Assembly (NCBI GenBank): GCA_963831685.1
Contig: CAWHRJ010000002.1
Location: forward strand, 675,188 to 739,187
Direction of reading: 5' to 3'
Length of the DNA stretch: 64,000 nt
Source: an uncultured Pseudomonadota bacterium
Lineage (GTDB): Bacteria; Myxococcota_A; Polyangia; Fen-1088
Numbering within the stretch: position 1 is the first letter of the stretch; each line of letters opens with the position of its first letter. Position numbers and translations under genes: made by a program. The notes beneath the pieces are model-generated. The model ran no database searches, was not told the origin of the DNA, and saw nothing but the letters and a program-made list of their open reading frames with translations. This document shows positions 1-64,000 of this stretch, one piece after another.

Positions 1-113
1 ACGAGAACCACTCCGACGACGAGGATCGGTTTCTTCTGCTCGGGATGAGCGGTCGTCTCGTCTCCGAAGGCAAACGCACTCGAGCGGCAACAATACGAGG
101 ACCGGAGGATCAG
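1..113 (+). pseudogene. BrnT-like (DUF497) toxin, 3' remnant cut by the window edge
   Basis: Frame 3 reads ENHSDDEDRFLLLGMSGRLVSEGKRTRAATIRGPEDQ. The HS.DEDRF...G block typical of BrnT toxins is present, but the following segment looks shortened. There is no stop codon before the brnA ATG at 114. Confidence 0.4.
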
Positions 114-374
114 ATGAAGAAGAACTACGACTTTGCCGGCGCTGTCCGGAATCCCTACGCCAAGCGCCTCAAGAAGCAGCTCACCATCAGGCTCGATGAG
201 GAGACGATCGACTACTTCCAAGGACTCTCACGGAAGATGTCTCTTCCCTACCAAACCCTCATGAACATGTACCTTCGCGACTGCGCGGAAACGCGGAAGA
301 GCCCTCATTGGGCCGCACCCTCACGTTCGCGGCGGCCCAAGGCGCTGCCGAAACCTGCGAGCAACCGCCGGTGA
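114..374 (+). CDS. brnA: BrnA-type ribbon-helix-helix antitoxin
   Basis: MKKNYDFAGAVRNPYAKRLKKQLTIRLDEETIDYFQGLSRKMSLPYQTLMNMYLRDCAE fits the BrnA pattern (NPYAK.LKKQ.TIRLD..I.YF....G.PYQTLIN.YLRDC). I prefer the internal ATG at 114 to the ORF-track start at 45. The 3' tail may be over-extended. Confidence 0.75.
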   Translation: MKKNYDFAGAVRNPYAKRLKKQLTIRLDEETIDYFQGLSRKMSLPYQTLMNMYLRDCAETRKSPHWAAPSRSRRPKALPKPASNRR

Positions 375-392
375 ACGCCTCGACCGGTTCGG

Positions 393-1790
393 CTAGGAAC
401 AGATTCCCGCCAGCGGGTCGGGGCAGGTCCCATTGCTGCCGCAGTAACCGGCGAGACAGTTCGAAGGGAACGTGCCCGCCGAGCAAGCCGCGCCGGCGCC
501 GAGGAGCGCCTTGCAGTGGGAGGTGGTCGGGTCGCAATTCGACCCGTCGACGCAGGCGCCGAACGCGTTCGTGCAGGCGGCCCCGGCCGGCAAGCGCGAC
601 TGGCAGGTTCCGCTGCCGAACTCACAGTAGGTCTTGATCCCGTCGCACTGATTGGAGCTGTCGCAGGAATCGCCGAGCCCCCCGATCGGCACGCAGACGT
701 AGCTCGCGGAGCACATCAGTCCCTGGTCCTGGTCGCAGAAGGTGTACCCGGTCGGATTGCCCATGCCCTGGAAGCTCCTTTGGGACGGTGACGCCGTTCC
801 GATGCAGGGATCGGACAGCTTGGTGGTGATGACGGCGCAGAGATGGCCGCCGTCGTTCGACCCGGTCGACCAGAAGATGTCGGGCTCGCAGGCGGCAGGG
901 CCGGATGGACCGGGTGCGCAGTCGCCGTCCATGTTGCAGGGCTGTCCGGCCGCCACGGTCCCGGTGCTCGCGGACCCAAAGACGCTCGCGCACTCCGGAA
1001 TCACGGCGAACCCGTTGGCGCCGCCGGAGAGCGTGGCGAGCCCCGCACAGAACCCCGACCCGGACGGGCGCGCCTGCAGGGCGGCGAGGCAGGCGGTCGC
1101 CGCGGTCTCGTCGAACGTGTAGGACCCCGCCGCGCTCAGGACCAGATCTTCGCACGCCAACGACGAATGACTGGCCGCGCAGCATGGGTCGACGAGGGCA
1201 CAATACGACTGGGCGAACGACTGCGCGGCGGAGGAGGCCCCGGAGCATTTCTGCTGCAGAGTCTGGCAGCTGACCGGCGACGAGGTCGCGGGGCTGGCGG
1301 TGCCGCCGTCGTTCGCCGTCAAACTGGCGCGGGTGACCGAGCCGCAGTCGGGGAGCTGCGCGGCGAGTGCTCGCGTGGCGGCCGCCTCGTCGTCGAGGCA
1401 GCTCGCGAGCTCGCTGACGGTGGCCGTGCAGTTCGCGGGCGGGGCCATGCAGGTCTGGGTGGCGCCGGCTCCGCCGTCGGGATGAAGGCACGACGTGTAG
1501 GCCGACGTGCAGGCCGCCTGCAGCTCAGCGTCGGTCATGTCCGGCGAAAAGCTGGCCGTGAGCGCCACCGTCAGGAAGGCCGCCTCGTGGCAGGCGTCCA
1601 TCTCGAGGGACGACTGCTGCGCAAACCTCATCTCGTCGTTGCACAGCTCGGTGGCCTGCGAACCGCTCAGGCTCCCGAGCGGCGTGTTTCCGGGGATCGA
1701 GGTCACGAAGACCTCTCCCGAACCGCCGCCGCACGCCGCGGGGAGAGCCCCGATCAAAATCAGACCCAACACTGTCGCTCGTCTGTCCAT
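393..1790 (-). CDS. Cys-rich secreted lipoprotein, function unknown
   Basis: 465-aa ORF with a signal peptide plus lipobox (LILIGALPAAC). It is very Cys-rich, with C-terminal Dickkopf-like spacing (CDSSNQCDG..YCE.GSGTC...CTNAFGACVDGSNCD). Confidence 0.7.
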   Translation of the reverse strand: MDRRATVLGLILIGALPAACGGGSGEVFVTSIPGNTPLGSLSGSQATELCNDEMRFAQQSSLEMDACHEAAFLTVALTASFSPDMTDAELQAACTSAYTSCLHPDGGAGATQTCMAPPANCTATVSELASCLDDEAAATRALAAQLPDCGSVTRASLTANDGGTASPATSSPVSCQTLQQKCSGASSAAQSFAQSYCALVDPCCAASHSSLACEDLVLSAAGSYTFDETAATACLAALQARPSGSGFCAGLATLSGGANGFAVIPECASVFGSASTGTVAAGQPCNMDGDCAPGPSGPAACEPDIFWSTGSNDGGHLCAVITTKLSDPCIGTASPSQRSFQGMGNPTGYTFCDQDQGLMCSASYVCVPIGGLGDSCDSSNQCDGIKTYCEFGSGTCQSRLPAGAACTNAFGACVDGSNCDPTTSHCKALLGAGAACSAGTFPSNCLAGYCGSNGTCPDPLAGICS

Positions 1791-1941
1791 GGACCCAGAC
1801 CATCAGCAAGTCCCGTGCCCGATTTTGAACTACACGGAGCCGCCGGCGCAGCGGCCACGACGCGCGCACGTGAAGGATGCGCGACACAGTGAGAACGATT
1901 CTGCACACGAAGCGGTGCGCTCGGGGGGCTCCCCGTGCGTC

Positions 1942-2742
1942 TCAGGTCTCGGCGACCACCGGGTTCGTGAGCGAGCCGATCTTCTCGATCTCCACCGTCA
2001 CCACGTCGCCGGGCTTGAGCCAGATGGGTGGCTTGCGGGCCATCCCCACGCCCGAGGGTGTCCCGGTCAGGATGACGGTCCCCGGCACCAGCGTGGTGCT
2101 GCCGCTCAGGAACTCGATGAGGCGCGGCACGTCGAAGATCATGTCGGCGGTCGTCTCATCCTGCATCCGCACGCCGTTCAAGATGGTGGCGATCTTGAGG
2201 GCGTTGGGGTCGGGAATCTCGTCGCGCGTGACGAGACAAGGGCCGAGCGGCGCGAAGGTGTCGAAGGTCTTCCCGCGGCACCACTGCCCTCCCCCGTTGC
2301 GGATCTGCCAGTCGCGCGCCGAGACGTCGTTGGCGCAGGTGTAGCCGAGCACGTAGTCGAGCGCGCGCGCGCGTGACACGTTCTTGCAGGTGCGCCCGAT
2401 CACCACCGCCAGCTCGCACTCGTAGTCGACCTCGGCGCTGGCGAGGTGGCCGGGGATCACGATCGGCGCGCCGGGATCCTGCGCGGCGTTCACCCCCTTC
2501 ATGAAGAGGATCGGGTAGTCGGGGAGCTTTGCGCCGGTCTCCTGCGCGTGGCGCCGGTAGTTGAGCCCGATGCAGAAGAAGCCCTTCGGCTCGATCGGCG
2601 CCAGCAGGCGCGCCACGTCGGCGGTCTTCTCGGTGATCGTGTGGTCAGCGAAGAGGTCGCCTTCGATCGAACGGACGCGACCGTCCTCCTGGGCTCCGTG
2701 GTGCGCCCGCCCGGCGCCGTCGAGATAACGAACGATCTTCAT
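1942..2742 (-). CDS. Fumarylacetoacetate hydrolase (FAH) family hydrolase, candidate 2,4-diketo-3-deoxy-L-fuconate hydrolase
   Basis: The last 266 aa of the 560-aa ORF, starting MKIVRYLDG, carry FAH blocks (FCIGLNYRRHA, DYECELAVVIG, GKTFDTFAPLGP, GTVILTGTPSGVG). ATG at 2742 with GGAGA upstream. ATGA overlap with the fucD stop. Confidence 0.9.
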   Translation of the reverse strand: MKIVRYLDGAGRAHHGAQEDGRVRSIEGDLFADHTITEKTADVARLLAPIEPKGFFCIGLNYRRHAQETGAKLPDYPILFMKGVNAAQDPGAPIVIPGHLASAEVDYECELAVVIGRTCKNVSRARALDYVLGYTCANDVSARDWQIRNGGGQWCRGKTFDTFAPLGPCLVTRDEIPDPNALKIATILNGVRMQDETTADMIFDVPRLIEFLSGSTTLVPGTVILTGTPSGVGMARKPPIWLKPGDVVTVEIEKIGSLTNPVVAET

Positions 2743-4081
2743 GTTGGTGAAGTCTCCTTCCAGACCGAGCCGCCAGGATAGGTGTGCGCCGCCAGCGAGG
2801 CGGGTTTCATGGTGATGCTGGCGCCGGCGGCGGTCGGCACCTGGTAGCGGCCGCCGCGGATCACGCAGGGGTCGACGAAGTGCTCGTGCAGGTGATCGAC
2901 GTACTCGATCGAGCGCCGCTCGAGCGCGCCCGACACCGCGACGTAGTCGAAGATCGAGGCGTGCTGCACGTACTCGCAGAGACCGACGCCGCCCGCGTGG
3001 GGGCAGACCGGAACGCCGAAGCGCGCGGCGAGGAGCAGCGTCGCCACCATCTCGCCCACGCCGGCCATGCGGCAAAAGTCGAGCTGGCAGAAGGCGGCGG
3101 CGCGCGCGGCGAGCAGCTGCTTCCAGACCACGCGGTTCGACACCATCTCGCCGGTGGCGACGCCGATGCCCAGCGGCTCGAGCGCGCGCGCGATCGCGGC
3201 GTGCCCCAGGATGTCGTCGGGGCTGGTCGGCTCCTCGATCCAGAGCGGCTTCGACGGCGCGAGCGCGGTCATCCAGTCGATCGCCTGGCCGACGTCCCAG
3301 CGCTGGTTGGCGTCGACCATCAGGACGCCGCCCTGGCCGATCTCCTCGCGCACCAGCGCCGCGCGCCGGATGTCGTCGGCGCGGTTCGCCCCAACTTTGA
3401 TTTTGAAGCGGGTGAACCCGGCGCCGAGCGCCGCGCGGCAGAGCCGCCGGATCTTCGTCGTCGGGGTAGCCGAGCCAGCCGACCGAGGTGGTGTACGCCG
3501 GGTAGCCGGTCTCGCGCAGCTCCGCCTCGCGCGCTGCGCGCGTCGGGACCAGGCGATCGAGCGCGCGGCGCGCCTCGTCCGGGGTGAGCGCATCGGTCAG
3601 GTAGTGCCAGTCGACGAGCTCCACGATCCGCGTCGGGTGACAGATCGGCCAGCAGCTTCCAGAGCGGCTGGCCGGCGATCTTGGCCCACAGGTCCCAGAG
3701 CGCGTTCACCACCGCCGCGCTGGCCAGCTGCATGACCCCCTTCTCGGGGCCGAGCCAGCGAAGCTGCGAATCGCCGGTGGTGATCCGCCGGGTGAGCTCG
3801 CCCGGCGCGTCGGTGAAGGCGGCGAGCGGTTGGCCGACGACCAGCGGCCGGATCGCCTCGACGCCGGCGACGACCACCTCGGTGCCGCGGCCGATGGTGA
3901 AGGTCAGTCCGTGCCCCTCGACGCTGTCCCCGCGATCGGTCCCGAGGATCACGTAGGCCGCCGAGTAGTCGGGGTCGAGATTCATCGCGTCCGAGCCATC
4001 GAGGTTGCGCGAGGTCGGGAAGCGGACGTCGACGATGCGCAGGCTGGTGATGGTGCCGGTGCGGTCGTCGAGCGGTTTCAT
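2739..4081 (-). pseudogene. fucD: L-fuconate dehydratase (enolase superfamily) with two apparent 1-nt frameshifts
   Basis: The N-terminus (ITSLRIVDVRFPTSRNLDGSDAMNLDPDYSAAYVIL...PLWKLLADLSPD) is in the 3320..4081 frame. The middle (ELVDWHYLTDALTPDEA...GYPAYTTSVGWLGYPDD) is in the 1942..3624 frame. The C-terminus (IRRLCRAALGAGFTRFKIKVGA...LWIEEPTSPDD...CPHAGGVGLCE) is in the 2739..3593 frame. The shifts lie near 3625-3632 and 3452-3456. Confidence 0.85.
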
Positions 4082-4842
4082 TTGCCCGCGCTCCAGCCGC
4101 CGTCGACCAGGAGGCTGCTCCCCATCACCATCGCCGACTCGTCGGCCGCCAGGTAAAGCGCGGCGGCGGCGATCTCCTCGGGCTTGGCCATCCGCCCGAC
4201 CAACTGCGTGCCGGCCATGTCGCGGTAGGCCTGCTCGGGATCGGGCGACTCGGCGATGCGCTTCATCGCGAACGGCGTCTCGACGCGGCCCGGGCAGATG
4301 CAGTTGAAGCGCACGCCCGTGTGCGAATGATCGAGCGTCAGCGACTTGGTCAGCCCCACGACCGCGAACTTGGTGACCGTGTAGGCCAGCCGCTGTCGCA
4401 CGGCCACCACGCCGCCGATCGAGGCCATGTTGATGACGCTCCCCGCGCCGCGCGCGATCATCGCGGGCGCGAAGGCCTTGCAGCAGTTGAAGACGCCGCG
4501 CACGTTGACCGCGTACAGACGATCGAGATCGGCGGCGGTGGTGTTCGACAGATCGCCGACGTGGCCGATCCCGGCGTTGGCGCAGAGCACGTCGAGCGGC
4601 GGCAGCCCGCCGGCCAGCGCCAGCACGGCCGCCTCGTCAGAAACGTCGACGACCGCCAGCTCGGCGCGGCCCGACGCGGCCCGGATGGCTTCGACCGTCG
4701 CGCGGCCGGCCGGCTCGTCGCGGTCGACCACGAACACGTCGGCCCCCTGCGCGGCGAAAAGCTCGGCGATCGCCCTGCCGATGCCGGAGCCGGCACCGGT
4801 CACCAGCGCGTTCTTGCCGTCGAGTCGAAAGGGCGTTGTCAT
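4078..4842 (-). CDS. Short-chain dehydrogenase/reductase, candidate 2-keto-3-deoxy-L-fuconate dehydrogenase
   Basis: 254 aa with TGAGSGIG Rossmann motif, NAG, S...YxxxK (YTVTK) and a PG..T motif. ATGA overlaps with both neighbours. Confidence 0.85.
   Translation of the reverse strand: MTTPFRLDGKNALVTGAGSGIGRAIAELFAAQGADVFVVDRDEPAGRATVEAIRAASGRAELAVVDVSDEAAVLALAGGLPPLDVLCANAGIGHVGDLSNTTAADLDRLYAVNVRGVFNCCKAFAPAMIARGAGSVINMASIGGVVAVRQRLAYTVTKFAVVGLTKSLTLDHSHTGVRFNCICPGRVETPFAMKRIAESPDPEQAYRDMAGTQLVGRMAKPEEIAAAALYLAADESAMVMGSSLLVDGGWSAGK

Positions 4843-7946: not shown

Positions 7947-7962
<16 letters not shown>
6955..7962 (+). CDS. Sugar ABC transporter periplasmic binding lipoprotein (RbsB-like)
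   Basis: [28 protein letters not shown] lipobox, then a periplasmic-binding fold pattern ([44 protein letters not shown]). Confidence 0.9.
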
Positions 7963-9472
<1,510 letters not shown>

Positions 9473-9476
<4 letters not shown>

Positions 9477-12613: not shown

Positions 12614-12650
12614 CCGCCACCCTTCGTCCAGAAGTCGTTTGGCGGCTTGC

Positions 12651-15011: not shown

Positions 15012-15031
15012 CGCCGCCGCGACCGATCCAT
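14539..15031 (-). pseudogene. RibD_C/dihydrofolate-reductase-like gene copy lacking its 5' third and frameshifted
   Basis: About 470 nt are near-identical to 16465-16936 and encode HFAKRDAGTYAIAFDR.GKLHFAKPDIGGDH.VVLLGPGVPDAHLAELAGD. An extra T near 14703 (agcaagcTTgatctc versus agcaagctgatctc) breaks the frame. Confidence 0.7.
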
Positions 15032-15034
15032 GGG

Positions 15035-52186: not shown

Positions 52187-52213
52187 GGGTCGAGGGTCCC
52201 CAACAGAGCACAG

Positions 52214-52225
52214 GTTTCCGGAAAC
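52214..52225. promoter_or_regulatory. Perfect palindrome GTTTCCGGAAAC upstream of GH74
   Basis: 28 nt upstream of the GH74 ATG. Related to 59443-59454. Confidence 0.35.
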
Positions 52226-52292
52226 ATACAAATGGAGAGATGCCGGGGCCAGACTCGCCCGCATCCGCCGTCCGCCGGCGCGCCCCTCGGCG

Positions 52293-53039
52293 CTAGAACC
52301 GGGCGCCGACGCCCAGCGCGACGCGCACGTACTGCGAGCGGGAGTCGCGCTTCGTCCCCAAGATGGAGACCGACTGGTAACCGAGCTGGTAGCCGGCCCC
52401 CACATTGATGAAGATCCGGTCCGACATGTCCATGGCGGCGCCGCCGCCCAACGCCAGGACGAGGCCCTTGCTCGTGCCCGCGCCGGGATGGAGGATCTGC
52501 GAGTAGCCAGGAAGGGCTTCGCCGTAGAGCGTGATCCCGTCGACGAGCGGGAACGCATACTGCACACGCGCCATGAAGTCGTACTCGGTCGAGGAGGCCG
52601 GTAGAGCGATACCGTTCCCGGCCGGGTTGGTCTTGTAGTTGACGCCGTAGATCACCTGCGGCGCGATCCCGAGGTGGAGGCCGGCGATGACCCGGTAGGT
52701 GGCCGACAGGCCGACGCCATAGGCGAACCGGGCGTCAGCCGTCGCGTCCATCGCGCCGTTCGGCGTCTTGAGCTGCCCGCGGCCCATGGGAAGGAACGCC
52801 AGGCCGACCTCGATCCGCCTGGGCGGCTGCTCCTCGGGAGCGGGCGGAGCCACCACGCCCACCGTTCCAGCGGGCGCCGGCGGCGGGGGAGAGGGCGAGG
52901 GAACCGCGGCGGGAAACGGGTCGACCCCGGACGGCGGAGCCGCGGGGGAGGGCGGCGGCGCGGGCACCGCCTCCTCCGCGCGGGCCCCGGCCCCGAATGC
53001 GATCACCATCAGACCAACCAGTATGCTTGCTTTGCGCAT
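52293..53039 (-). CDS. Small outer-membrane beta-barrel protein (OMP_b-brl type)
   Basis: Signal peptide MRKASILVGLMVIAFGAGARA, a Pro/Ala-rich spacer, alternating beta-strand pattern, C-terminal ...ALGVGARF. Confidence 0.7.
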   Translation of the reverse strand: MRKASILVGLMVIAFGAGARAEEAVPAPPPSPAAPPSGVDPFPAAVPSPSPPPPAPAGTVGVVAPPAPEEQPPRRIEVGLAFLPMGRGQLKTPNGAMDATADARFAYGVGLSATYRVIAGLHLGIAPQVIYGVNYKTNPAGNGIALPASSTEYDFMARVQYAFPLVDGITLYGEALPGYSQILHPGAGTSKGLVLALGGGAAMDMSDRIFINVGAGYQLGYQSVSILGTKRDSRSQYVRVALGVGARF

Positions 53040-53062
53040 CGTTTTCTCTCGTCTCGGCGCCG

Positions 53063-54577
53063 CTAGAAGTAGAACGAAAACCGCAGTCGAACGCTGTACG
53101 TCTCGTCGTCGAACTCCGTCGGCGGGTTGCTGTTGGCCAGGAACCAGTGCCCGCGCGAGTAAGCGCCGACCACCTTGATGTAGAGCTGCTGGAACACCAC
53201 ATACTGAACGGCCACGAAGCTTTGCCACAACCACCAGTGGTCGACGACGCCCGGAATGACGATGGCTTGCTGGTCCTCGTTCCGGGTGTAGAGGCCGCCG
53301 ATGCCGAAGAGGAGCGGGTGCCTGTCGCTCCCGTTCGAGAAGTTCGCGAAGCCCCCATAGCTCGTGCGCGTGAGGCTTGCCGTCAGGAGCTCTTTCCCGA
53401 GGTTGTTGATGTTGACGACCGTCCCCTGCGCGGCGTTGAGGCCGAACTCGACGTGGGGATTGAAGACGAACTGGATCGCGCCGCCGACCCCCTTGGCGGT
53501 GTAGTCCGTTTCGTCGGTGGCCGCCTGGCCGGTGATGTGCTGGTACTCGACGCCCCCCTTCAGCTTGAGCCAACCGAAATCGAGGATGGCGACCGGACGC
53601 GTCGCGTACGCGGGATTGCTCAGGCTTCCGGCCATGGCCAGAAGCTCGAAACGAAGGAACGGCAGCGGATAATAGTGAAGGGCGAAGTTGCCGGCGGCAC
53701 CCGACGGGCGATACTGATTGTCGTCGAGGCCGTAGAACTTGATCGGATACGCTTTCTCACCCTGGCCGACGGCGCCGTCACGCTCGAACGTCAGGTAGTC
53801 CAGGCCCATGCCGAGATGGAAGACCTCCCACCCCTCGAAGCGGCCGACCTGAAAATCCCATCGGTTCCACTGGCCGATCCGCAGCCAGAGATCGTCGGTG
53901 TCGGCGCCGCCCGTCTGCGACCGCTGGATGCTCTGATTCTCGGTGCCGACCAGCTCGACCTGTCCCTGGACGAAATAGTTGTCGAACGAGTAGGTCGGCG
54001 TCACCCGGAGCAGCATGCGTCCCTGCTGCGTCCAGTAGGCGACCTTGCTTTGCTCGAGCGAGGGGTTCGGCCCCCAGGGGAAAAACTTTTCGTACCCCGT
54101 GTCGAGCCATCCCCATCCGGAGAGGCCAATCACGAACCGGTCGCGGCCCGACTTGGCCGGCAGGTAGGGCCACTGCAGACCGTGGAAGGTGAGCCACAAG
54201 GAGCCGTACTTGAGACCGCGCGTCTGCGGCTCCGGGTAGGCCGACCCTGGCAGACGCTGGACGCCAACCTCGGTGACCGGCGGCGCCTCGACCGCAGGCT
54301 CGGGAGGTGGCGGGATCGATCCGGAGATCGCGGTGGCCTCACGTGCCGGCGCGGGCGACGCGGCGGGGCTGGGCGTCACGGGGACCGACACGATGACCAC
54401 GGCTGCCGGCGCCGGCGTGGCGGGCGCGGCCGGCGGCGAAGCGGGCGCCGCCGCTCCCGCCGGGGCGTCGGCAGGCGCCCCAGCACCGGCGGCAAAGGCG
54501 GTCGACGCTGCGGGTGCGAGTGCGAAGCTGGTCAGAACAACGACGAGGGTTTTGGTCGAGCGGACAGATGTTCTCAT
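53063..54577 (-). CDS. Large outer-membrane beta-barrel, porin-like
   Basis: Signal peptide (VVVLTSFALAPAASTAFA), a Pro/Ala-rich spacer, a long amphipathic-strand region, C-terminal ...RLRFSFYF. The ATG overlaps the GH3 stop (ATGA). Confidence 0.7.
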   Translation of the reverse strand: MRTSVRSTKTLVVVLTSFALAPAASTAFAAGAGAPADAPAGAAAPASPPAAPATPAPAAVVIVSVPVTPSPAASPAPAREATAISGSIPPPPEPAVEAPPVTEVGVQRLPGSAYPEPQTRGLKYGSLWLTFHGLQWPYLPAKSGRDRFVIGLSGWGWLDTGYEKFFPWGPNPSLEQSKVAYWTQQGRMLLRVTPTYSFDNYFVQGQVELVGTENQSIQRSQTGGADTDDLWLRIGQWNRWDFQVGRFEGWEVFHLGMGLDYLTFERDGAVGQGEKAYPIKFYGLDDNQYRPSGAAGNFALHYYPLPFLRFELLAMAGSLSNPAYATRPVAILDFGWLKLKGGVEYQHITGQAATDETDYTAKGVGGAIQFVFNPHVEFGLNAAQGTVVNINNLGKELLTASLTRTSYGGFANFSNGSDRHPLLFGIGGLYTRNEDQQAIVIPGVVDHWWLWQSFVAVQYVVFQQLYIKVVGAYSRGHWFLANSNPPTEFDDETYSVRLRFSFYF

Positions 54578-57162
54578 TGAGTCGATCCGGCGGGGGTGAC
54601 GGTATATCCGTTGACATTGACCATTCCGGTCAACGGGAGATTCGTTGAGCTGCCGCCCACCATGATCTTGACGGGGCCGGACTGCACAACCCAAGAACCG
54701 GACTGCCCCGTCGAGTCGGTCGGGTCAATCTGGAAGTAGTCGAGGTCCGATAGTCGGACCGGAATCGTGACCTGCTTCGTCTCGCCCGCCGCCAGGCTGA
54801 CCCGCGCGAAGCCCTTGAGCTCCTTGGCCGGGCGGCGCGCGGTGGTGTTGTTCGGGAACGAGACGAAGACCATGGCGATCTCGTCACCGGGAACCATCCC
54901 GGTGTTGGTGATGTTGACGACCACCGGCAACACGCCCCCCTGGCCCATCGCCGTGCACCCGAGCTGCAGGTTGCTGTACTGGAAGCTCGTGTAGCTGAGC
55001 CCGTAACCGAACGGGAAGGTCCCTTGTGACGGCGTCAGCGCGATCGCCTTGTTGTCGAACCAGCGGTAACCAACGAAGTAGTGGAAGACCGTGCTGCCCC
55101 CGCTGTTGCTGTTGCCGGCGCCGTTGAACGTGTCGTAGTCGTCGAGGTGCGCCCAGGTGAAAGGCAGCTTGCCGCCGAAGTCGTAGGAAACGCCGTTGAC
55201 CTGGCCCCACAGGAGATCGCCCAGCGCCTCGCCGCCGCGCTGGCCCGGGTACCAGGCCATAACCACCGCGGAGGCCGCCGGAAGCGCGGTGACCCAGGGC
55301 ATGTCGATCACGCTCCCACCCTCGAGCACGACCACCATCGGCTTGCCCATCGCCGCCACGCTTCTAATGAGCGCCTCCTGGACGCCTTGGTACGCAGAAT
55401 CGGTCTGCTTGGCGTCGAGGTAGAGGAACTTCCGATCGCCCGCCCCCGTGTACTCCTCCCCCTCGTCCTCCGGGGTGAGGCCGGCCACGACGACCACGAA
55501 ATCGGCGTCGGACGGGACGTCCGCCGCGGTGTTCCCCGCGACGACCGTAACCCCCGACGGGGCCGCCGCCTGGATGCCGGCGAAGGGGCCCACCGACTTC
55601 TTGGGATCAAGATCGGGAAAGACGCGGCTCGAACCAAGGTCGCCGCCGCGCACGTCCCTGGCGAAGTCGATCGTCCCACCAGTCGGCTGGTCGGGCGAAC
55701 CGTTGTTGGTCTTGTAGGGGACCTTGGCCCCTACGACGGCGACCTTCTGGACGGCCGGGCTGATGGGGAGGGCTCCCATGTCGTTCTTGAGCAGGACCAT
55801 GCTCTCGAGCGCCGCCTTGTTGGCCAGCGCGAGGTGGGTGTAGTCGCAACTGATCCTGCTGTTCGAGTAGACCGTGACTGGCTTCCCCAGCCCGGTGAGC
55901 CCGCTGGTCGGGTCGGCGTTGAAGCGGAACTTCTCGTAGAGGACCCGTCGGGCCGCCGCGTCGATCTGTCCCTGATTTATTGAGCCCGCATGGATGAGGC
56001 TCTGGAGCTGTCCGTAGTAGAGGCCCCAGGGGAGCTCGACGTCGAGCCCGGCGTTGAGCGCCTTGATGGCATTGGTGTTGAGCGTGCTGGTGTCGGGGAC
56101 GCTGGTATCACCGGGCATGGCCCACCAGTCGGACAGGATGAATCCCTTGAACCCGAAGTCGTTGCGCAGCACGTCCGTCAGGGTGTGGGTGTTCTCCGTC
56201 GACTTGGTCATGTTGACCTCGTTGTACGAGGCCATGACCGACGACACCCCGGAGTCCTGCACCACCATCCGGAAGTGACGCCCATAGATCTCGCGCAGCG
56301 TCTGCTCGTCTTCCATCTGCGAGTTGTTGGTCGAGCGGTGGTCTTCGATGTCGTACCCCATGAAGTGCTTGGCGTTGGCGGCGACGTGTTGCTGCACGCC
56401 GACCACCAGCGCGGAGGCGAGGCGGCCAATCTGGTACGGATCCTCGCCGTACGTCTCCTGCGCGCGCCCCCACAGCGGGTGGCGGAGCAGGTTCATGCAG
56501 GGCGCCAGCAGCAGCGTCTGCCCGGCGGCCTGCATCTCGTCACCGATCGCCTCGCCGACGGCGGCCTCGAGATCCAGGTCGAAAGCGGCGCCGCGCGCCA
56601 TGCTGACCGGGAACGCCGTCGAGTAGCCGACGTGCTGGCCGTTCACGAAGTCGGCCGTGGCGAAGACACCGTCGAGGTCCTCGCCCAGGTTCATGCCGCG
56701 CGAGGCGTCCCGGTACCGAAAGCCGCGGATACCGGTCGACGTGTCCTGGCTGCGCTGGATGTCGTTGAACTGGATCCCCCCGTTGATGATGTAGGGCATC
56801 CCGTACATCTGGAATGTCTCGTCTTCCAGGTTGATGTTCCCCATCGTCTTGTCGACCTTGGCCTGGATGGTCGGATCGTTGTACCCGTAGCCCTGCGAGT
56901 ACTTGTCGATCGCGTTGGGGTTCGTTCCCGCATCGGCGGACCCGGCGCAGAGGGCGACCACCGGGACGGCGTTCTCCGCGTCGCCGGTGGCCTGGACGGT
57001 GCTGACGATGTTCACGCCGGCGTCGGGAGACAGCGAACAGGTGGTCGGCACGGCGCCGCCGCCGTCCCCCGTGAGCCCCTTCGGCAACGGAAGCGAGCAG
57101 GCCGACGCGCCGAGCAGCACAATCAGGACCAGCCAAAGTCTGAGCAACTTCAAGTTCTGCAT
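54574..57162 (-). CDS. GH3 beta-glucosidase, lipoprotein
   Basis: MQNLKLLRLWLVLIVLLGASAC. GH3 blocks: LLRHPLWGRAQETYGEDP, KHFMGYD, GFKGFILSDWWAM (nucleophile Asp). C-terminal fibronectin-like domain. Confidence 0.9.
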   Translation of the reverse strand: MQNLKLLRLWLVLIVLLGASACSLPLPKGLTGDGGGAVPTTCSLSPDAGVNIVSTVQATGDAENAVPVVALCAGSADAGTNPNAIDKYSQGYGYNDPTIQAKVDKTMGNINLEDETFQMYGMPYIINGGIQFNDIQRSQDTSTGIRGFRYRDASRGMNLGEDLDGVFATADFVNGQHVGYSTAFPVSMARGAAFDLDLEAAVGEAIGDEMQAAGQTLLLAPCMNLLRHPLWGRAQETYGEDPYQIGRLASALVVGVQQHVAANAKHFMGYDIEDHRSTNNSQMEDEQTLREIYGRHFRMVVQDSGVSSVMASYNEVNMTKSTENTHTLTDVLRNDFGFKGFILSDWWAMPGDTSVPDTSTLNTNAIKALNAGLDVELPWGLYYGQLQSLIHAGSINQGQIDAAARRVLYEKFRFNADPTSGLTGLGKPVTVYSNSRISCDYTHLALANKAALESMVLLKNDMGALPISPAVQKVAVVGAKVPYKTNNGSPDQPTGGTIDFARDVRGGDLGSSRVFPDLDPKKSVGPFAGIQAAAPSGVTVVAGNTAADVPSDADFVVVVAGLTPEDEGEEYTGAGDRKFLYLDAKQTDSAYQGVQEALIRSVAAMGKPMVVVLEGGSVIDMPWVTALPAASAVVMAWYPGQRGGEALGDLLWGQVNGVSYDFGGKLPFTWAHLDDYDTFNGAGNSNSGGSTVFHYFVGYRWFDNKAIALTPSQGTFPFGYGLSYTSFQYSNLQLGCTAMGQGGVLPVVVNITNTGMVPGDEIAMVFVSFPNNTTARRPAKELKGFARVSLAAGETKQVTIPVRLSDLDYFQIDPTDSTGQSGSWVVQSGPVKIMVGGSSTNLPLTGMVNVNGYTVTPAGSTQ

Positions 57163-57503: not shown

Positions 57504-59403
57504 TTACGGGCCCGGGACGAAGACCGTCGCCCAGCCGCTGCTGGGCATCGAGAACGAGTACTTCGCGCCCTTGATGGAGACCACGTACGCGCTGTTGGCC
57601 GAGCCGGAGTTGTACATGACCGCCACCTCGCTGCCGTCCGGGTTCTTGAAGGCGATCGCGTCGCCGCCGCTGGTGCCGACGACCGTCGCGCCGACCTGGG
57701 TGTACTGCGAGCAGTGGCGGAAGACGTAGTAGGCCGGCGTCGCGATCAGCGCCTTCGACGAGGTGTTCACGGTCAGCAGCGCGTCCTGTGCCCACTGCCG
57801 GGTCGTGTCGTTCCCCTTGCCGCCGGTGTCGAGAATCATGTTCCAGGCGTTGTACGAGGTGACCTTGCCCTTGGTGATCGCGTCGCGGATGTAGCCCCAG
57901 GACTCGACACCGTAGGCCTGATCGTTGGGCGCCGGCTCCACGTACTTCGGAGACCCCGACGGGTTCCAGGGGTAGTTACCGCATTTGTGCTCGGTCGCCC
58001 AGACCGGAAGGCTGCCGGTCATGAAGGTCGACGGGCTGACGCCGCTGGTCTTTCCCTCGTAGAGGTCCAGCATCCCCCACTGCAGGCCCATGACCTTGGG
58101 GATCGCCTTTGCCGACGAGTCGGCCTCCACGCCCTGGACCACCTTCAGATCGAAGCTGGTCGAGCCGTTGTCGCCGTTCGACATCGTGCCGAGCATGATC
58201 TTGGTGCTACCGGAGCTGGGGAACGCCGTCGCCAGCGCCCCCTTTTCAAAGCTGACGTAGTCCGCCGTGTTCCACAGGCAAGACGGGTAGCCCTGCGCGT
58301 AGTTCGGCTCGTTCTGCGGCGCGATGTAGTCGATCGGGATGCTCATCCCGCTATACGCCGAGACCCACTTCGACAGATAAGTGGCGAGGGCCGTCAGGTT
58401 GGCGCTGGTCGCGTTCATGCAGCCGCCGTCGAAATTGGTGCTGCCGACCTTCGCGCACGAGGTGCCGTTGCTGTTGCTGCCGCTGAACGTCTTCATCCAG
58501 GTGGGCGGCGTCCAGGGGCTGGCCCAGAAGCGGAGCTTGCTGTTCACCTTCTGCGCCGCCTGCACGTAGGGGATCAGGTACTTCATGTCCTGGCTGATCG
58601 AGAAGCTCGAGAGGCTGGTGTCGCCCGAGGTCTCGTCGTCCGTGTAGCGCGAGATCGCGTAGTCGCTGGCGCCGATCGGGATGCGCCCGATGGCGAAGTG
58701 GGCCGCGTCGGCACCGAACAGCAGGTCGAGGGCCTTGTTCTGGTCGGCCGTGCTGAGCATCGCCAGGTAGTTCGCCGCCCATCTCGTTGAAGGCGCCTCC
58801 GAAGCCCTCCCAGTTCGAACTAATCGTCGTGCCGTCGTTGACGGTCACGGTCGCGCTGGCGGTCGAGGTCGCCAGCGTCCCGGTCACCCAGTAGGTGCTG
58901 GCGCCGGTCGAGCCGTTCGAGGTCACGACCAGCGGCTGCGAGGAGGTGCTGCCGCCCGTCCCGGTCGAGCCGCCCGTGCTGGTGCCGCCCGACCCGGTCG
59001 TGCCGCCCGTGGTCGTGCCGCCGGTGCCGGTGTTCCCGCCGCTGGCGGTCGAGCCGCCGGTGCTGCTGCCGCCCGAGCCGGTGTTGCCGCCCGACGCGCT
59101 GTTGCCGCCCGAGCCGGTGTTGCCGCCCGACGCGCTGTTGCCGCCCGAGCCGGTGCTGCCACCGCTGCTCACGGAGCCGCCGGTCCCGGTGTTGCCGCCG
59201 CTCGACGAGCCGCCGCTGCCGGTGTCGCCGCCGGTCCCGGTGATGACGATCATGCCGCCGGTGCCGGTGTCACCACCGCTGCCGGATGAGTTCCCGCCGC
59301 TGCCATTCGAGCCTCCGCTGCCACCACCCTGCCCCTGTTGGGCGCAGGCGGTGAAAAGGAACGCGAGGCTAAGTCCGGTGATGGATAGGCGTGCTGTCTT
59401 CAT
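57504..59403 (-). pseudogene. GH30 glycoside hydrolase with Gly/Ser linker, lipoprotein; one apparent frameshift
   Basis: MKTARLSITGLSLAFLFTAC, linker, ...NWEGFGGAFNEMG, then a shift near 58773-58780 to NYLAMLSTADQNKALDLLFG...IGASDY...YIAPQNEP...WATEH. Confidence 0.8.
59065..59160. repeat. 36-bp tandem repeat encoding the SGGNSASGGNTG linker
   Basis: gttgccgcccgagccggtgttgccgcccgacgcgct is repeated about 2.6 times. Confidence 0.75.
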
Positions 59404-59671: not shown

Positions 59672-60673
59672 TTACTTCACCGACGACGCGCGCGCGTCAC
59701 GCGTCGCTTCCATGCCCTGGGCCTGGGCCTGCAGGTTGATCTCCTGCTCCACCACGTAGAGCGGGCGGCGCTTCACCTCCTCGTAGATGCGCCCCACGTA
59801 CTCGCCAAGGATTCCCGTCATGAGCAGCTGCGCCGACGATCCGAGGCCGACCACGATCATGAGCGTCGTCCACCCGCGCACGACGCCACCGAAGAACTTC
59901 GAGTAAAGCGCCCACCCGACGCCGCCCATCGCGACGACGCCGGCCAGGATCCCCAGCCAGGTGGCCATCCGCAACGGGACGATCGAAAAGGAAGTGATCC
60001 CGTCGACGGCGAAGTGGAGCATTTTGCGAAAGGGGAACTTGGTCTCGCCGGCGAACCGCGCCGGCCGATCGTAGGTGACGGCCGTCTGGCGAAAGCCGAC
60101 CCACCAGACGAGGCCGCGCACGAACCGGTGACGCTCGCGCAGGGCGCACAGCGTCCGCACGACCGAGCGGCTCATGAGCCGGAAGTCCCCCGCGTCGACG
60201 GGGATCGCGGCGCCCCCCAGCATCACGCGCAGCAGGCGATAGAACAGGGCGGCGCTCAGCTTCTTGAACACGGTCTCGCCGTGGCGCTGCGCGCGGACCC
60301 CGAACACCACGTCGAACCCTTCCCGCCAGCGGGCGACCATCTGGCGGACCACCTCGGGCGGATCTTGCAGATCGGCGTCCATCACCACCACCGCCTCGCC
60401 GTTCGCGCGATCGAGCCCGGCCGTGATCGCCATCTGGTGGCCGAAGTTGCGCGAGAGCGAGATGACCTTGTAGCGCGGTTCGGCCGCAGCCAGCTCGGTG
60501 AGCAGCGCCAGCGATCGATCCTTCGAGCCGTCGTCGACGAAGATGACCTCCCAGGATTCGCCGACGCCGCTCCCCACGTCGGCCAGGAACGCGCGCAGGC
60601 GGCGGTCGAGCTCCGGGATGATCGCTTCCTCGTTGAAGATGGGAAGAACCAACGAAAGGATCGGACCCGTCAT
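59672..60673 (-). CDS. GT2 polyprenol-phosphate glycosyltransferase (ArnC/GtrB/DPM1-like)
   Basis: LSLVLPIFNEE...VIFVDDGSKD...SRNFGHQ.A...VVVMDADLQDPPE, plus two C-terminal TM helices. Confidence 0.9.
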   Translation of the reverse strand: MTGPILSLVLPIFNEEAIIPELDRRLRAFLADVGSGVGESWEVIFVDDGSKDRSLALLTELAAAEPRYKVISLSRNFGHQMAITAGLDRANGEAVVVMDADLQDPPEVVRQMVARWREGFDVVFGVRAQRHGETVFKKLSAALFYRLLRVMLGGAAIPVDAGDFRLMSRSVVRTLCALRERHRFVRGLVWWVGFRQTAVTYDRPARFAGETKFPFRKMLHFAVDGITSFSIVPLRMATWLGILAGVVAMGGVGWALYSKFFGGVVRGWTTLMIVVGLGSSAQLLMTGILGEYVGRIYEEVKRRPLYVVEQEINLQAQAQGMEATRDARASSVK

Positions 60674-60706
60674 CGGCCCTGTATATCATCAGGCTCGAAC
60701 GCCGGC

Positions 60707-62335
60707 ATGCCTGCGCCCAGCCCAACAGAGCCGCGTTCGCGGAGATTCCAGGCGTTGTTGCTGGCGGTCTTCGCCCTGGGCGTGGTGCTGCGTGCGCCGA
60801 CGTTCCTGCGGCCCCTGCTCTCCGACGACGAGGCGATCTACGCGACGACGGCGGACGCGCTCGCGCGCGGCGACCAGCTTTACCGCGACGTCGTCGACCA
60901 CAAGCCGCCGCTCATCTACCATCTCTACCGGGCCGGCTTCGCGCTCGCCGGGCCGTACGACACGCAGGGGGCGCACCTGCTGGTCGTCCTCTCCGTGCTG
61001 CTGACGGCCGGCCTGCTCTTCTCGATCGCCTCGGGCGAGCGGGCGGCGCGCGGCGAGGGACTGGCCGCCGCGGGGCTGTTCCTGATCTTCTCGACGACCT
61101 GGCACGACTACGACGCGCTGGCGGCCAATTGCGAGCTCTTCCTGTTGTTGCCGCAGGCGCTCGGCGCCTGGCTGCTCCTGCGCGATCTTCGCGCCCCGGC
61201 GCGCGGCGCGCGCGGCTGGGCCCGTCATCTGGCGATCGGCGCGCTCATCGGAACGTCGGCGCTCCTCAAGTATCAGGGGCTCACCTTCCTCGGCGCGTCG
61301 ATCGGCATGCTGCTCTGGTGGTCGCTCCGCGGGCGCGCGCCGAGGTCGTGGGTCGCCTCCCGCGCCCTCTGCCAGGTCGCGGGCGCGCTGGCGCCGGCGG
61401 CGCTCTACGTCCTGCGCTGCCGCGCCGCGGGCAACGCCGCGGACGCGATCTACTGGCTCAGGTTCAACTTCTCCTACGTGGGTGCCGGTCTGACCGGCTT
61501 CGAGGCGCTCGGGCGCGGCCTGCGGCGGACGGGCCTCGTCGGCGGCGCCGCGCTGGTCCCCTACGCGCTCGGGATCTGGGGCGCGGTCACGGCCGCGCGG
61601 GACCTCGCACGCAGCCTGGGCCACCGGACCCAAGGCACACCGGACGACGCGCCGGGCAGTGTGGAGGTCCCCGCGACGCCGGCAGTGCTGGGCCTCCTCT
61701 GGCTGGCAACCTCCGCCCTCGCGCTCTCCGCCGGCGGGCGCTTCTTCGGCCACTACTTCCACCTGATCCTGCCGCCGCTCTGCCTGCTGGCGGCGCCCGG
61801 GTTCGTGCGCCTCTGGCAGACAGGAGGCGCGCGCCGGCTCGCGCTGGCTGTGCTGTGCGCCCTCCCCGCCCTGCTCTTCTTCGCGCTCGGCTCTTTCGCG
61901 CGGCCGCTCGCCGCCCGGCTCGACGAAAGCGAGCCGCCGTACGCGGAGATCGCCGCCCGCATCGACCGCCTCACCGCGGCCGACGAGCGGATCTTCGTCT
62001 GGGGGAATTCGCCCCAGCTCTACGTCCTCGCCCGCCGGCCGATGGGCGCCCGGTTCTCGTCGGCCAACTTCGTCACCGGCGAGAGCCCGGGAACGCCGAC
62101 CGAGACGGGCGCGCGGAACGCCGACGCCAACCAGGATCCGGTCCGCTGGCAGATGCTGTTCGACGATCTCGAGCGGCGCCGTCCCGCGCTGCTCGTCGAC
62201 GCCGCGGCCGCCGGCTGGGACGGCTACGGCAAGTACCCGCTCGCCCGCTATCCGCGGTTGCGCGGCTACGTCGACGCCCACTACCGGCCCGTCGAGGTGA
62301 GCGCGGGCGTCGTCCTCTACCGCCGGCTGCCCTGA
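60707..62335 (+). CDS. ArnT/PMT-like (GT39/GT83-type) polytopic membrane glycosyltransferase
   Basis: C-terminal 542 aa of the 1146-aa ORF, starting MPAPSPTEPRS. Early DDEAIY motif in the first loop, HKPPLIY, many TM helices and a soluble C-terminal domain. Confidence 0.75.
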   Translation: MPAPSPTEPRSRRFQALLLAVFALGVVLRAPTFLRPLLSDDEAIYATTADALARGDQLYRDVVDHKPPLIYHLYRAGFALAGPYDTQGAHLLVVLSVLLTAGLLFSIASGERAARGEGLAAAGLFLIFSTTWHDYDALAANCELFLLLPQALGAWLLLRDLRAPARGARGWARHLAIGALIGTSALLKYQGLTFLGASIGMLLWWSLRGRAPRSWVASRALCQVAGALAPAALYVLRCRAAGNAADAIYWLRFNFSYVGAGLTGFEALGRGLRRTGLVGGAALVPYALGIWGAVTAARDLARSLGHRTQGTPDDAPGSVEVPATPAVLGLLWLATSALALSAGGRFFGHYFHLILPPLCLLAAPGFVRLWQTGGARRLALAVLCALPALLFFALGSFARPLAARLDESEPPYAEIAARIDRLTAADERIFVWGNSPQLYVLARRPMGARFSSANFVTGESPGTPTETGARNADANQDPVRWQMLFDDLERRRPALLVDAAAAGWDGYGKYPLARYPRLRGYVDAHYRPVEVSAGVVLYRRLP

Positions 62336-62360
62336 GGCCGCGGCCGCGCCGGGCGGCGGC

Positions 62361-63284
62361 TCAGCCGGGTGCCGCGGGTCCCGTCGCGCGGGACGAGCGG
62401 ACCAGATAGACGCCGGTCGCGACGACGGCGACCGGAATGACGTGGGTCAGGTGGTAGGCAAGCGCGTAGGAGACGGCGACGTCGCGCGGGGTGCCGCACA
62501 TGACCAGCGCCATCACCGCGCCGGCCTCGAAGGTTCCGAAGTTTCCCGGCAGCGTCGGGATCGCGATGGCGGCGTTGATCCCGATCAGCGTCAGCAAGGC
62601 GGTGGCGAAGCTCGGCGTGAGATGGAAGGCGCTCTGGAACAGCACCAGCATCACGAGCTCGCTCGCCCATCCGAGCAACGAGAGAGCGACCATGGCCGCC
62701 ACCCGGCGCGGGGTGGAGGCCGCGAGCCCGGCCGCGAGCGCGCGCTTCACGCGCGGCCACCGGCCGAGGCGGGGCACGAGAACGCGGCCGGTCGCGAGCA
62801 GGGCCGCGTAGGCGGCGACCGCCGCCCCGGAGAGTCCCATCGCCACCGTCCGCAGCTTGGTCGTGAGCGCGGCGACGAAGATGAGGATGGCGAAGGCGAG
62901 CGCCTCGGCGCCGCGCTCGGCCCAGGTGCAGGCGTAGTCGACCGCGAGCTGCCCCTGCTGCCGGCGCAAGCGCGACGCGCGCACCAGATCGCCGCTGCCG
63001 AACCCGATCGCGGCGTTGGCCAGCAACCCCTCGACGGTGGCGGCCAGCACCTGACGAAACGGCGGCGGTGCGACGAGGGCCAGCCGCCAACGTGCGGCCT
63101 TGATCGGCAGGAAGACGGCGAGGTTGAGCAGGATCGTCGCCGTCACCGCCCAGGGCGCGTTCGGCGAGACACGGACCGCCCAGGGTTTCTCGCGCGAGAG
63201 AACGCCGGCCAGCAGGCAGAGCGGAATCAGCCGCAGGGCGATGCCCACCCGCGCGCGGGTCTTCGCCGTCGTCTTTCCCTGCAT
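62361..63284 (-). CDS. UPF0104 / lysylphosphatidylglycerol-synthase-TM-region-like (flippase-like) membrane protein
   Basis: 307 aa, multi-TM. LPGNFGTFEAG near the C-terminus is typical of this family. Confidence 0.7.
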   Translation of the reverse strand: MQGKTTAKTRARVGIALRLIPLCLLAGVLSREKPWAVRVSPNAPWAVTATILLNLAVFLPIKAARWRLALVAPPPFRQVLAATVEGLLANAAIGFGSGDLVRASRLRRQQGQLAVDYACTWAERGAEALAFAILIFVAALTTKLRTVAMGLSGAAVAAYAALLATGRVLVPRLGRWPRVKRALAAGLAASTPRRVAAMVALSLLGWASELVMLVLFQSAFHLTPSFATALLTLIGINAAIAIPTLPGNFGTFEAGAVMALVMCGTPRDVAVSYALAYHLTHVIPVAVVATGVYLVRSSRATGPAAPG

Positions 63285-63287
63285 TGG

Positions 63288-64000
63288 TCAGGCGGCGGCG
63301 TGCGAACGCCAGCGGGGCCGCTCGGCCGGCTTCCGGGCGACGCGCTGGAAGACGTCGAGGATGCGCCCGCCGACCTTCTCCCAGTCGAACGCGTCGGCGA
63401 TGACGCGCCCGCGCGCGATGCGCTCGCGCTGATCCCGCCGCAAGGTCTCGCTGACGGCTGCGGCGAAGGCGTCGACGTTGTCCTCTTTGGCCATGACCAC
63501 GTTGGACCAATGCTCGCCCGCGTTGCCGGTGCCGAGGCCCGGGAGCGCCACCACCGGCAGGCCGGCGGCGAACGCCTCCAGCACCATGATCGAGAATCCG
63601 ACCGCCCGGGCCGGCAGCAGGAACGCCGAGGCCGAGGCGAGCAGCTCTGGCCGCTGGTCGAAGACCGCGCCCAGGAACTCCACCCGATCGCGGAGCGCCG
63701 GCGCGACCTGCGCCTCGAGCGCGGCACGCATCGGGCCATCGCCAGCCATCAGCAACCGGACATCGGGAAAGGTGGGCCCGATCCGGTTGAACGCCTCGAT
63801 CGCCACCTCGGGCCCGTTGCGCGACTCGAGCCGACCGAGAAAGACGATGTTGCGCGTCCCCGGCCGCAGGTAGCGGGCGCTCGGCGCCGCGCGCCAGTAG
63901 CCGACGTCGACGCCGTTCGGGATGATGGTCGGCTGGAAATCGGCGTACCGGCGCCAAGCATGCGAGGTCGCCTCCGAGACCGCGATGACCGCGGTGGCGC
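63288..64000 (-). CDS. GT4-type glycosyltransferase, 5' end beyond the window
   Basis: ...IIPNGVD...VFLGRLESRNGPEVAIEAFNRI...LLMAGDGP...VEFLG...SASAFLLPA..VGFSIMVLEAFAAGLPVVA is the GT-B C-terminal domain pattern. The same frame continues to position 64000. Confidence 0.8.
   Translation of the reverse strand, partial: ATAVIAVSEATSHAWRRYADFQPTIIPNGVDVGYWRAAPSARYLRPGTRNIVFLGRLESRNGPEVAIEAFNRIGPTFPDVRLLMAGDGPMRAALEAQVAPALRDRVEFLGAVFDQRPELLASASAFLLPARAVGFSIMVLEAFAAGLPVVALPGLGTGNAGEHWSNVVMAKEDNVDAFAAAVSETLRRDQRERIARGRVIADAFDWEKVGGRILDVFQRVARKPAERPRWRSHAAA

Follow-up and report, generated by a model that had tools for sequence, protein, structure and literature searches.

Patchy frameshifts in a highly contiguous metagenome-derived genome as probable local consensus errors

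The clustered frameshifts in the window (the whole 64,000-nucleotide stretch analysed here) very probably arose as local errors in the consensus of a long-read-type metagenome assembly (probability roughly 0.88, from sequence comparison), because the indels are private to this assembly, patchy genome-wide, present in essential genes, unaccompanied by extra substitutions, and situated elsewhere in a sister assembly. In the organism itself, the genes that look broken are most likely intact. The genome would be a MAG built from long reads, its contiguity and low completeness being typical of such MAGs, in which about 8% of the consensus, in patches of 0.2-12 kb, was apparently never properly corrected and the remainder is essentially clean. 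Uncorrected patches would carry some 3-6 small indels per kb, mainly 1-bp insertions outside homopolymers, and may reflect a local shortage of reads, either low long-read depth or stretches unreached by short-read polishing. The lutCBA operon, an ABC-transporter ATPase gene and fucD would then fall by chance in three dirty patches, and the glycoside-hydrolase block in clean sequence.

Assembly context and approach

The window's genome comprises 6.3 Mb in 17 contigs at 73.7% completeness, that is, high contiguity with poor completeness. Few contigs and low completeness likewise mark several congeners, namely G000, G009 (5 contigs, 68%) and G018 (9 contigs, 79%), the last being the closest relative. 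Indel-laden long-read MAGs are known for this combination; indel frameshifts in assemblies and MAGs from Nanopore or PacBio long reads truncate ORFs, inflate pseudogene counts and lower CheckM completeness, an effect that is stronger at low coverage (PMC8103633; PMC9262707; proovframe, bioRxiv 10.1101/2021.08.23.457338). Another congener, G006, can be taken as Illumina-derived because a contig end carries TruSeq adapter.

For polarisation, window DNA was aligned to syntenic loci in the congeners G018, G004 and G006, and strict polarisation denotes window-private 1-2 bp indels within the 20.1 kb covered by all three. The relatives' locus DNA was rebuilt exactly from six-frame translations, with stops as X, and verified against alignment A1. 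Reading frames were also followed with a home-made frame tracker (Viterbi decoding of codon log-odds), its background gauged on 95 kb only. Searches by tblastn with every stop-to-stop ORF of the relatives were too noisy, because off-frame ORFs match too in a 70% GC genome, and tracker-defined genes were used instead. Raw DNA gap lists at 75-85% identity (44-50 kb) include numerous alignment gaps that cancel each other out and leave the frame unshifted, and protein-level chaining showed the genes at 44-50 kb to be intact despite them.

Frameshifts in the window

The sequence-only reading had described frameshifts clustered in a few genes and had proposed a comparison with orthologous loci of close relatives. 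Both the frameshifts and their clustering are present in the sequence: 22 indels of 1-2 bp are strictly polarised as private to this assembly and absent from the relatives' loci, and frame tracking adds further events beyond these. The tracker counts 20 events in 64 kb (3.1 per 10 kb). At the window's own rate, the lut operon (2.8 kb) would contain seven or more tracker events with a probability of 4e-5, and 26.9 kb would contain none with a probability of 2e-4, so the clustering goes beyond chance. Uniform homopolymer error, which had been judged an inadequate explanation, does fail to account for events that are patchy and mostly outside homopolymers. The short G/C runs offered as context for several shifts did not prove to be the main setting, only 5 of the 17 polarised insertions touching any run of at least two bases. 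With 17 insertions to 5 deletions, these indels do not show the classical Nanopore pattern of homopolymer runs and dominant deletions that was looked for among them. Insertion bias is closer to PacBio CLR-type or raw-read error than to Nanopore homopolymer deletions.

In the lut operon, all three genes (minus strand) are broken. The two frameshifts claimed for lutC (26405..27030; orthologue with a LUD domain) are 1-bp insertions at 26753-26759 and 26946, seen in both DNA and protein alignment, and the LutC proteins of G004 and G006 align over three frames of the window gene. For lutB (27031..28445; orthologue with LUD and 4Fe-4S domains) at least five had been counted; 11 polarised indels were found, at 27373 (+2), 27393 (-2), 27399, 27556 (-1), 27562, 27635, 27699, 27743, 28164, 28181 (-1) and 28227, some of which offset each other within 6-20 nt. 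The two shifts reported in lutA (28446..29242; orthologue with CCG domains) correspond to 1-bp insertions at 28696 and 29077-29087, to which a third at ~29199, polarised against two relatives, is added.

The fucD-like gene of the enolase-superfamily dehydratases (2742..4153, minus strand; orthologue with MR_MLE_N/C domains) bears 1-bp insertions at 3456 and 3633, both private against all three relatives and equal in number to the two shifts originally read there; the G006 protein aligns over three frames. Five frame changes, as many as had been claimed, were recovered by DNA alignment, protein alignment and tracker in the ABC-transporter ATPase gene (7962..9473, plus strand; orthologue with two ABC_tran domains): net -1 at ~8284-8300, +1 at 8527, and -1 at 8772, 8931-8934 and 9295-9305. 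Those at 8527, 8931-8934 and 9295-9305 are strictly polarised against three relatives, and the tracker switches at 8282, 8528, 8777, 8962 and 9297.

Further genes carry single events. A short-chain dehydrogenase (SDR) gene (11669..12456, plus strand; adh_short domain), absent from the original list of broken genes, has a 1-bp insertion at 12434, near its 3' end, against all three relatives. The single shifts assigned to RibD_C-like copy A (14542..15034, minus strand), a YdeI/OmdA-family gene (18742..19321, plus strand; OmdA domain) and a GH30 gene (57513..58995, minus strand; Glyco_hydro_30 domains) were all borne out as 1-bp insertions. That at 14704 in copy A is private against G018, G004 and G006. 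Those at 19026 in the ydeI-like gene (against G018 and G006) and at 58777 in GH30 (G004 protein in two frames, also against G018 DNA) are each polarised by one fragmented Illumina-type relative, with G018 agreeing.

Three genes are described from the window itself. The TcmP-like gene (12528..13595, plus strand), in a lower-GC island whose locus no relative covers, is frame-split with an in-frame stop, as had been noted: it occupies at least three frames, positions 2-61 and 106-166 of the TIGR04474 profile fall in different frames, and the stop lies at 13293-13295. The gene initially named Sel1/DUF1311-like (15056..16141, minus strand), also without a relative, shows tracker switches only (15199 and 15798), and its fragments gave no Pfam or NCBIfam profile match. 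The same profile collections gave no match for the BrnT/BrnA-like fragments, likewise without a relative for polarisation, and the frameshifts originally read in this gene and in the Sel1/DUF1311-like gene are thus putative.

The sequence-only reading had also seen more than 20 kb of undisrupted long ORFs. About 27 kb, mainly glycoside hydrolases, is without frameshifts. In the block at 34944..57138, which holds GH31, GH29, GH35, a SASA-type esterase, GH12, GH5, GH43, GH74-like, GH3 and other genes, each gene forms a single in-frame HSP against proteins of the fragmented relatives, with zero tracker events. A second intact block of four genes (59690..64000) likewise gives single in-frame HSPs; its sole tracker event, at 62399, is probably a false call, because it coincides with a gene boundary where the overlap is 36 nt.

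Substitutional decay, reported as absent from the broken genes, is indeed not apparent. Per kb, lutCBA has 17.8 window-private substitutions, the ABC gene 22.8 and fucD 25.8, compared with ~24 in clean neighbours; the range is 10.5-25.8 per kb in broken genes and 20.8-28.6 in clean ones. Only one in-frame stop was seen, that of the TcmP-like island gene.

Genome-wide pattern and reciprocity in relatives

Across the whole genome the tracker records 2,144 frameshift-like events (3.4 per 10 kb), and these are far from evenly distributed. In 2-kb coding bins the variance-to-mean ratio is 3.7, with 72% of bins empty and up to 12 events in one. A total of 226 patches (median length 1.8 kb), making up 8.3% of the genome, hold 81% of the events, and density is 3.3 per kb within patches versus 0.7 per 10 kb elsewhere, where 264 singletons occur. 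The patches are physical blocks that extend across several adjacent genes and whole operons. At 124-136 kb of contig C11, Pfam profiles of EF-Tu domain 3, L4, L6 and L18 run on across different frames. The genes for L4, L6, L18 and S8 (rplD, rplF, rplR, rpsH) are single-copy in the assembly and lie within patches; tuf is duplicated, and one of its two copies is affected, a patch beginning inside it. Another patch spans efp, secD/F and a recJ-like gene. A regex motif search for the L3 gene gave no usable match. The breakage is thus genome-wide and blind to function, with rplD, rplF, rplR, rpsH, tuf, efp and secDF all frame-split.

The relatives provide both a control and a reciprocal case. Syntenic DNA of the fragmented congeners, of which one (G006) is Illumina-derived, yields 3 tracker events in 95.2 kb versus 20 in the 64-kb window (P = 1e-4), a tenfold lower rate that sets the detector background at 0.3 per 10 kb. 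G018, itself a few-contig, low-completeness assembly, has 31 tracker events in 70.5 kb. Its GH31, esterase, GH5, GH43 and GH74 orthologues, all intact in the window, are frameshifted, and its lut operon carries only ~3 private indels.

A driver of the patches intrinsic to the sequence was sought in repeats and GC, and neither accounts for them. GC is not appreciably correlated with event density (rho = 0.05; patches 70.6% GC, controls 69.7%). Of the 226 patches, 19 have a further copy elsewhere in the genome (minimum 80% identity across a minimum of 200 bp), as do 18 of 226 matched control segments.

Alternative explanations

Three explanations had been offered with the original observation, and locally low coverage or poor polishing is the one that fits the two-class genome pattern of dirty patches amid sequence close to the tracker's background, the affected ribosomal protein genes and the different genes broken in G018. 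Genuine, very recent pseudogenes, arising once L-lactate use, the breakdown of fucose and a single ABC importer came under relaxed selection, are highly improbable. The indels are truly in the deposited sequence and private to this lineage, and lutC, lutB and lutA form a single functional unit, as such a loss would have it; the same type of cluster nevertheless occurs in single-copy rplD, rplF, rplR and rpsH and in efp and secDF, and some 2,100 events lie in patches that run across neighbouring genes and operons. Essential genes are not spared, losses do not track function, and substitutions and stops do not build up with the indels. Spontaneous bacterial mutation produces roughly ten substitutions per indel, so that 17 indels would predict upwards of 100 substitutions across 2.8 kb, and no excess of private substitutions is found. 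Relaxed selection on specific functions is contradicted further by G018, where different genes are broken. Collapse of paralogues or repeats, in which indels would have entered the consensus when reads from divergent copies were combined, is less probable still. In its favour, ABC ATPases have many paralogues, with weak DNA matches of 65-66% elsewhere, and one of the two tuf copies contains the start of a patch; yet patches are no richer in second copies than controls, neither lutCBA nor the ribosomal protein genes have a further copy, and the extra substitutions that merging would also bring are not observed.

A mixed situation deserves more weight and is possible, if clearly a minority prospect: the dense patches would be artefactual, whereas one or more of the isolated events would truly inactivate a gene. 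This could apply to the TcmP-like gene and its stop, GH30 58777, ydeI 19026, RibD_C copy A 14704 and SDR 12434. Density outside patches is about double the detector background; loss of RibD_C copy A would be tolerable because a second copy is intact at 16468-17196; and the TcmP-like gene combines a lower-GC island with a stop codon. The isolated events in genes of that island (TcmP-like, BrnT-like) could be real. The singletons nonetheless resemble patch errors, being 1-bp insertions mostly outside runs, and residual low-density error is expected in any assembly of this kind. Strain microdiversity, a sub-type of artefact in which haplotypes of co-existing strains were mixed during consensus or polishing and so made indels, is unlikely. 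Patchiness without a sequence-intrinsic correlate would suit it, and the literature counts it among the influences on MAG quality (PMC9262707), but diversity is usually lowest in ribosomal protein operons and the patches have no excess of private substitutions. Least plausible of all, the patches might be real: in the population, or in a lineage including G018, small insertions would arise in local bursts, each within a tract of 1-10 kb. Error-prone repair synthesis after double-strand breaks is one conceivable cause; such tracts would have entered the MAG consensus from cells that were non-viable or heterogeneous, and a particular polymerase would have left insertion bias with near-absent substitutions as its mark.

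Significance and comparison with known systems

If the frameshifts are consensus errors, they bear on annotation quality, not on biology. With ~8% of sequence apparently uncorrected both here and in one or more representatives of congeners (G018), pseudogene calls from such genomes should not be trusted, among them any claim of lost lactate utilisation or a broken fucose pathway, and gene counts, completeness estimates and any frameshift-based finding are equally unreliable. Because these genomes are species representatives, truncated and chimeric ORFs spread into protein databases. Similar cases can be triaged without reads by a genome-wide frame tracker, inspection of ribosomal protein genes and comparison of what is broken in a sister assembly.

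Pseudogene-rich reductive genomes, such as those of Mycobacterium leprae and recently host-restricted symbionts, keep essential translation genes intact; their pseudogenes also gain substitutions, stops and deletions, decay tracks function, and close relatives share some losses. The present genome resembles them in its many frameshifted genes with still recognisable homology, and differs in that translation genes are hit, decay is absent, the damage lies in physical patches, and the losses in G018 are different. Programmed ribosomal frameshifting and phase variation, in which a single gene is likewise read in two frames, depend on one slippery site or one repeat tract at a fixed place in each gene, whereas here up to 11 indels per gene occupy unrelated, mostly non-repetitive sites. 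The closest likeness is to indel errors of long-read assembly: indels only, split ORFs with clean flanking peptide, thousands of events per genome with housekeeping and marker genes included, low completeness with very few contigs, and orthologous sites without events in fragmented congeners, one of them Illumina-derived. Even so, the events here are extremely patchy rather than evenly spread, and, unlike the homopolymer indels stressed in the cited Nanopore work, they are insertion-biased and mostly outside homopolymers.

Window-Private Indels

The clustered frameshifts in this stretch are very probably an assembly artefact, a reading to which we give a probability of nearly nine in ten, although a minority of isolated events may be real, especially that in the TcmP-like island gene. 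The comparison used syntenic DNA of the closest relative, G018 (few contigs, low completeness, 85-95% identical), and of three fragmented congeners, G004, G006 and G015, rebuilt from six-frame translations (stops rendered as X); no locus kept more than one ambiguous position, and the rebuilt DNA was verified against the alignment A1. Over the 20.1 kb in which the window aligns with G018, G004 and G006 alike, blastn gave 22 strictly polarised 1-2 bp indels private to the window. Window-private indels lie in fucD (3456, 3633), the ABC ATPase (8527, ~8931, ~9300, with in addition a net -1 at 8284-8300 and -1 at 8772), RibD_C copy A (14704), lutC (~26753, 26946), lutB (eleven events from 27373 to 28227) and lutA (28696, ~29080, and ~29199, the last against two relatives). 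The short-chain dehydrogenase (SDR) gene at 11669-12456 has a 1-bp insertion towards its 3' end, at 12434, which is seen against all three relatives and had escaped the sequence-only reading. The events in ydeI (19026) and GH30 (58777) are each polarised by one fragmented, Illumina-type relative, with G018 in agreement. The TcmP-like gene is interrupted: its matches to TIGR04474 positions 2-61 and 106-166 fall in different frames, and an in-frame stop is present. For the Sel1/DUF1311-like and BrnT-like genes, where the frameshifts are putative, Pfam and NCBIfam searches of the fragments gave no hit. The clustering exceeds chance in the lut operon (P = 4e-5), as does the event-free 27 kb (P = 2e-4). 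In the intervals 34.9-57.1 kb and 59.7-64 kb, every gene is single-frame against proteins of the fragmented relatives, including, per Pfam, GH31, GH29, GH35, a SASA esterase, GH12, GH5, GH43, a GH74-like gene and GH3. Comparison with orthologous loci thus bears out what had been claimed from the sequence by itself, namely that frameshifts cluster in a few genes while long glycoside hydrolase ORFs are undisrupted.

Other features of the window deserve mention. Compared with G018, G004 and G006, GH31 has 66-75 bp inserted in frame at 36696-36800; the extra segment, about residues 375-410 of the translation, lies on the N-terminal side of the catalytic TIM barrel and looks like a real length polymorphism. 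Islands of lower GC (59-65%) and weak coding signal at 12.6-14.4 kb and 29.2-34.9 kb hold the TcmP-like gene, an RHH/PIN-like pair (29209-29930) and BrnA/BrnT-like fragments (~29972-30460); they are absent from all relatives examined.

Genome-Wide Distribution

Frame was followed across the genome with a seven-state Viterbi tracker using codon log-odds from 761 of its long ORFs, a frameshift being called where two adjoining coding segments on one strand differ in frame and the frame of the upstream one remains open for >30 nt into the downstream one. Its switch points in the window match the alignment-derived indels. Its 2,144 events amount to 3.4 per 10 kb; with 3.1 per 10 kb, the window has an event density typical of the genome. 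Over-dispersion is strong, with a variance-to-mean ratio of 3.7 among 2-kb coding bins, 72% of them empty and a maximum of 12 events per bin. Some 226 patches (median 1.8 kb, maximum 12 kb), occupying 8.3% of the genome, hold 81% of the events, at 3.3 per kb within patches versus 0.7 per 10 kb outside. Among contigs the density per 10 kb varies between 0 and 5.6 events; C1, C5, C12 and C9 have 0-1.9, whereas the remaining contigs have 2.2-5.6. GC is lower in C5, C9 and C12 (67-68%) and coding fraction in C9 and C12, and these low-density contigs may represent replicons of higher copy number or may have another origin and have been binned with the genome.

Patches also reach essential genes. 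The genes rpoB and rpoC are clean. Over C11:125.7-134 kb, a stretch that begins in the 3' portion of the neighbouring tuf copy and takes in the S10/spc cluster of ribosomal protein genes, the frame changes every 50-500 nt. Of two tuf copies, that at C11:104043-105259 is intact and that at 124808-126036 is frameshifted from domain 3 onward, where this 9-kb error patch begins; by Pfam, profile positions 1-43 and 71-105 of EF-Tu domain 3 lie in different frames, Ribosomal_L4 runs across three frames, and L6 and L18 occupy two each. No second copy of L4, L6, L18 or S8 was found in the assembly. A further patch spans efp, secD, secF and a recJ-like gene. An organism with these genes inactivated would not be viable, so at least these patches must be errors, and in appearance they are the same as those in the window. 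In the same cluster (L031:2040-2400; C11:126040-126400), the S10 ORF ends at locus position 2366 and the L4 profile starts ~30 nt later, leaving no space for rplC (L3), although genes are usually ordered S10-L3-L4, and L3 was not located.

Relatives as Controls

As a control, G004, G006 and G015 DNA gave 3 tracker events in 95.2 kb. G018 gave 31 in 70.5 kb (loci L011-L014, G018:C4:464001-534500), especially at locus positions 45-57.5 kb. Two unnamed genes and GH31, the esterase, GH5 and GH43, all intact in the window, have orthologues in G018 that run across two to four frames, and its GH74 orthologue switches frame about nine times. Private indels in the G018 lut operon number only about three. 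Since G018 and the window are broken in different genes, it is the assembly, not the biology of the lineage, that determines which genes are broken. G018 should be treated as equally unreliable, with its own frameshift patches in other genes.

A TruSeq adapter at the start of contig C136 shows that G006 is an Illumina assembly. This untrimmed read-2 adapter, GTGACTGGAGTTCAGACGTGTGCTCTTCCGATCT (L015:13-46), stands in the public assembly and yields the spurious peptide VTGVQTCALPI. G006 also has a 1-bp difference of its own in RibD_C copy B (equivalent to window 16694; C136 ~20700), which breaks that gene into two ORFs; in the window, G004 and G018 the copy is whole.

Origin of the Patches

Three causes had been proposed from the sequence: recent relaxed selection, low coverage or poor polishing, and collapsed paralogous reads. 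Relaxed selection should leave substitutional decay. Spontaneous mutation brings roughly ten substitutions per indel, so that 17 real indels within 2.8 kb would be expected to add >100 substitutions. Private substitutions, counted at sites where G018, G004 and G006 share a base that the window lacks, number per kb 24.5 in lutC, 18.9 in lutB, 10.5 in lutA, 22.8 in the ABC ATPase and 25.8 in fucD, against 20.8-28.6 in clean neighbours, so that the broken genes show no excess over the clean ones. Collapsed paralogues would require second copies of the patches elsewhere in the genome, which exist for 19 of 226 patches and 18 of 226 controls; paralogy was accordingly rejected as a driver, as was GC (70.6% versus 69.7%; rho = 0.05). 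Only the second proposal, coverage that is low locally or polishing that is poor, fits; relaxed selection and collapsed paralogues do not.

The window occupies C2:675188-739187, and the genome as a whole has 6.3 Mb in 17 contigs at 70% GC, and a completeness of only 73.7%. Other few-contig congeners are oddly incomplete too (G009, 5 contigs, 68%; G018, 9 contigs, 79%), whereas those in 190-1,000 contigs reach 82-95%. High contiguity with low marker completeness is a known signature of long-read MAGs with indel-split genes (PMC8103633; PMC9262707; bioRxiv 10.1101/2021.08.23.457338); frameshift correction has raised completeness from 85% to 94-95% (PMC8103633), and low-coverage bins need short-read polishing (PMC9262707). 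By their spectrum the errors look rather like insertion-prone raw long-read error, which would have persisted wherever consensus or polishing support was missing. A Poisson depth of 5-6x would leave ~8% at <=2x, like the dirty fraction, which serves as a consistency check only. The errors comprise 17 insertions and 5 deletions (binomial P = 0.017), with only 5 of the 17 insertions touching runs of >=2 bases, and the private indels of G018 are mostly insertions as well. The window errors, insertion-biased and mostly outside runs, thus differ from the classical Nanopore pattern of homopolymer deletions.
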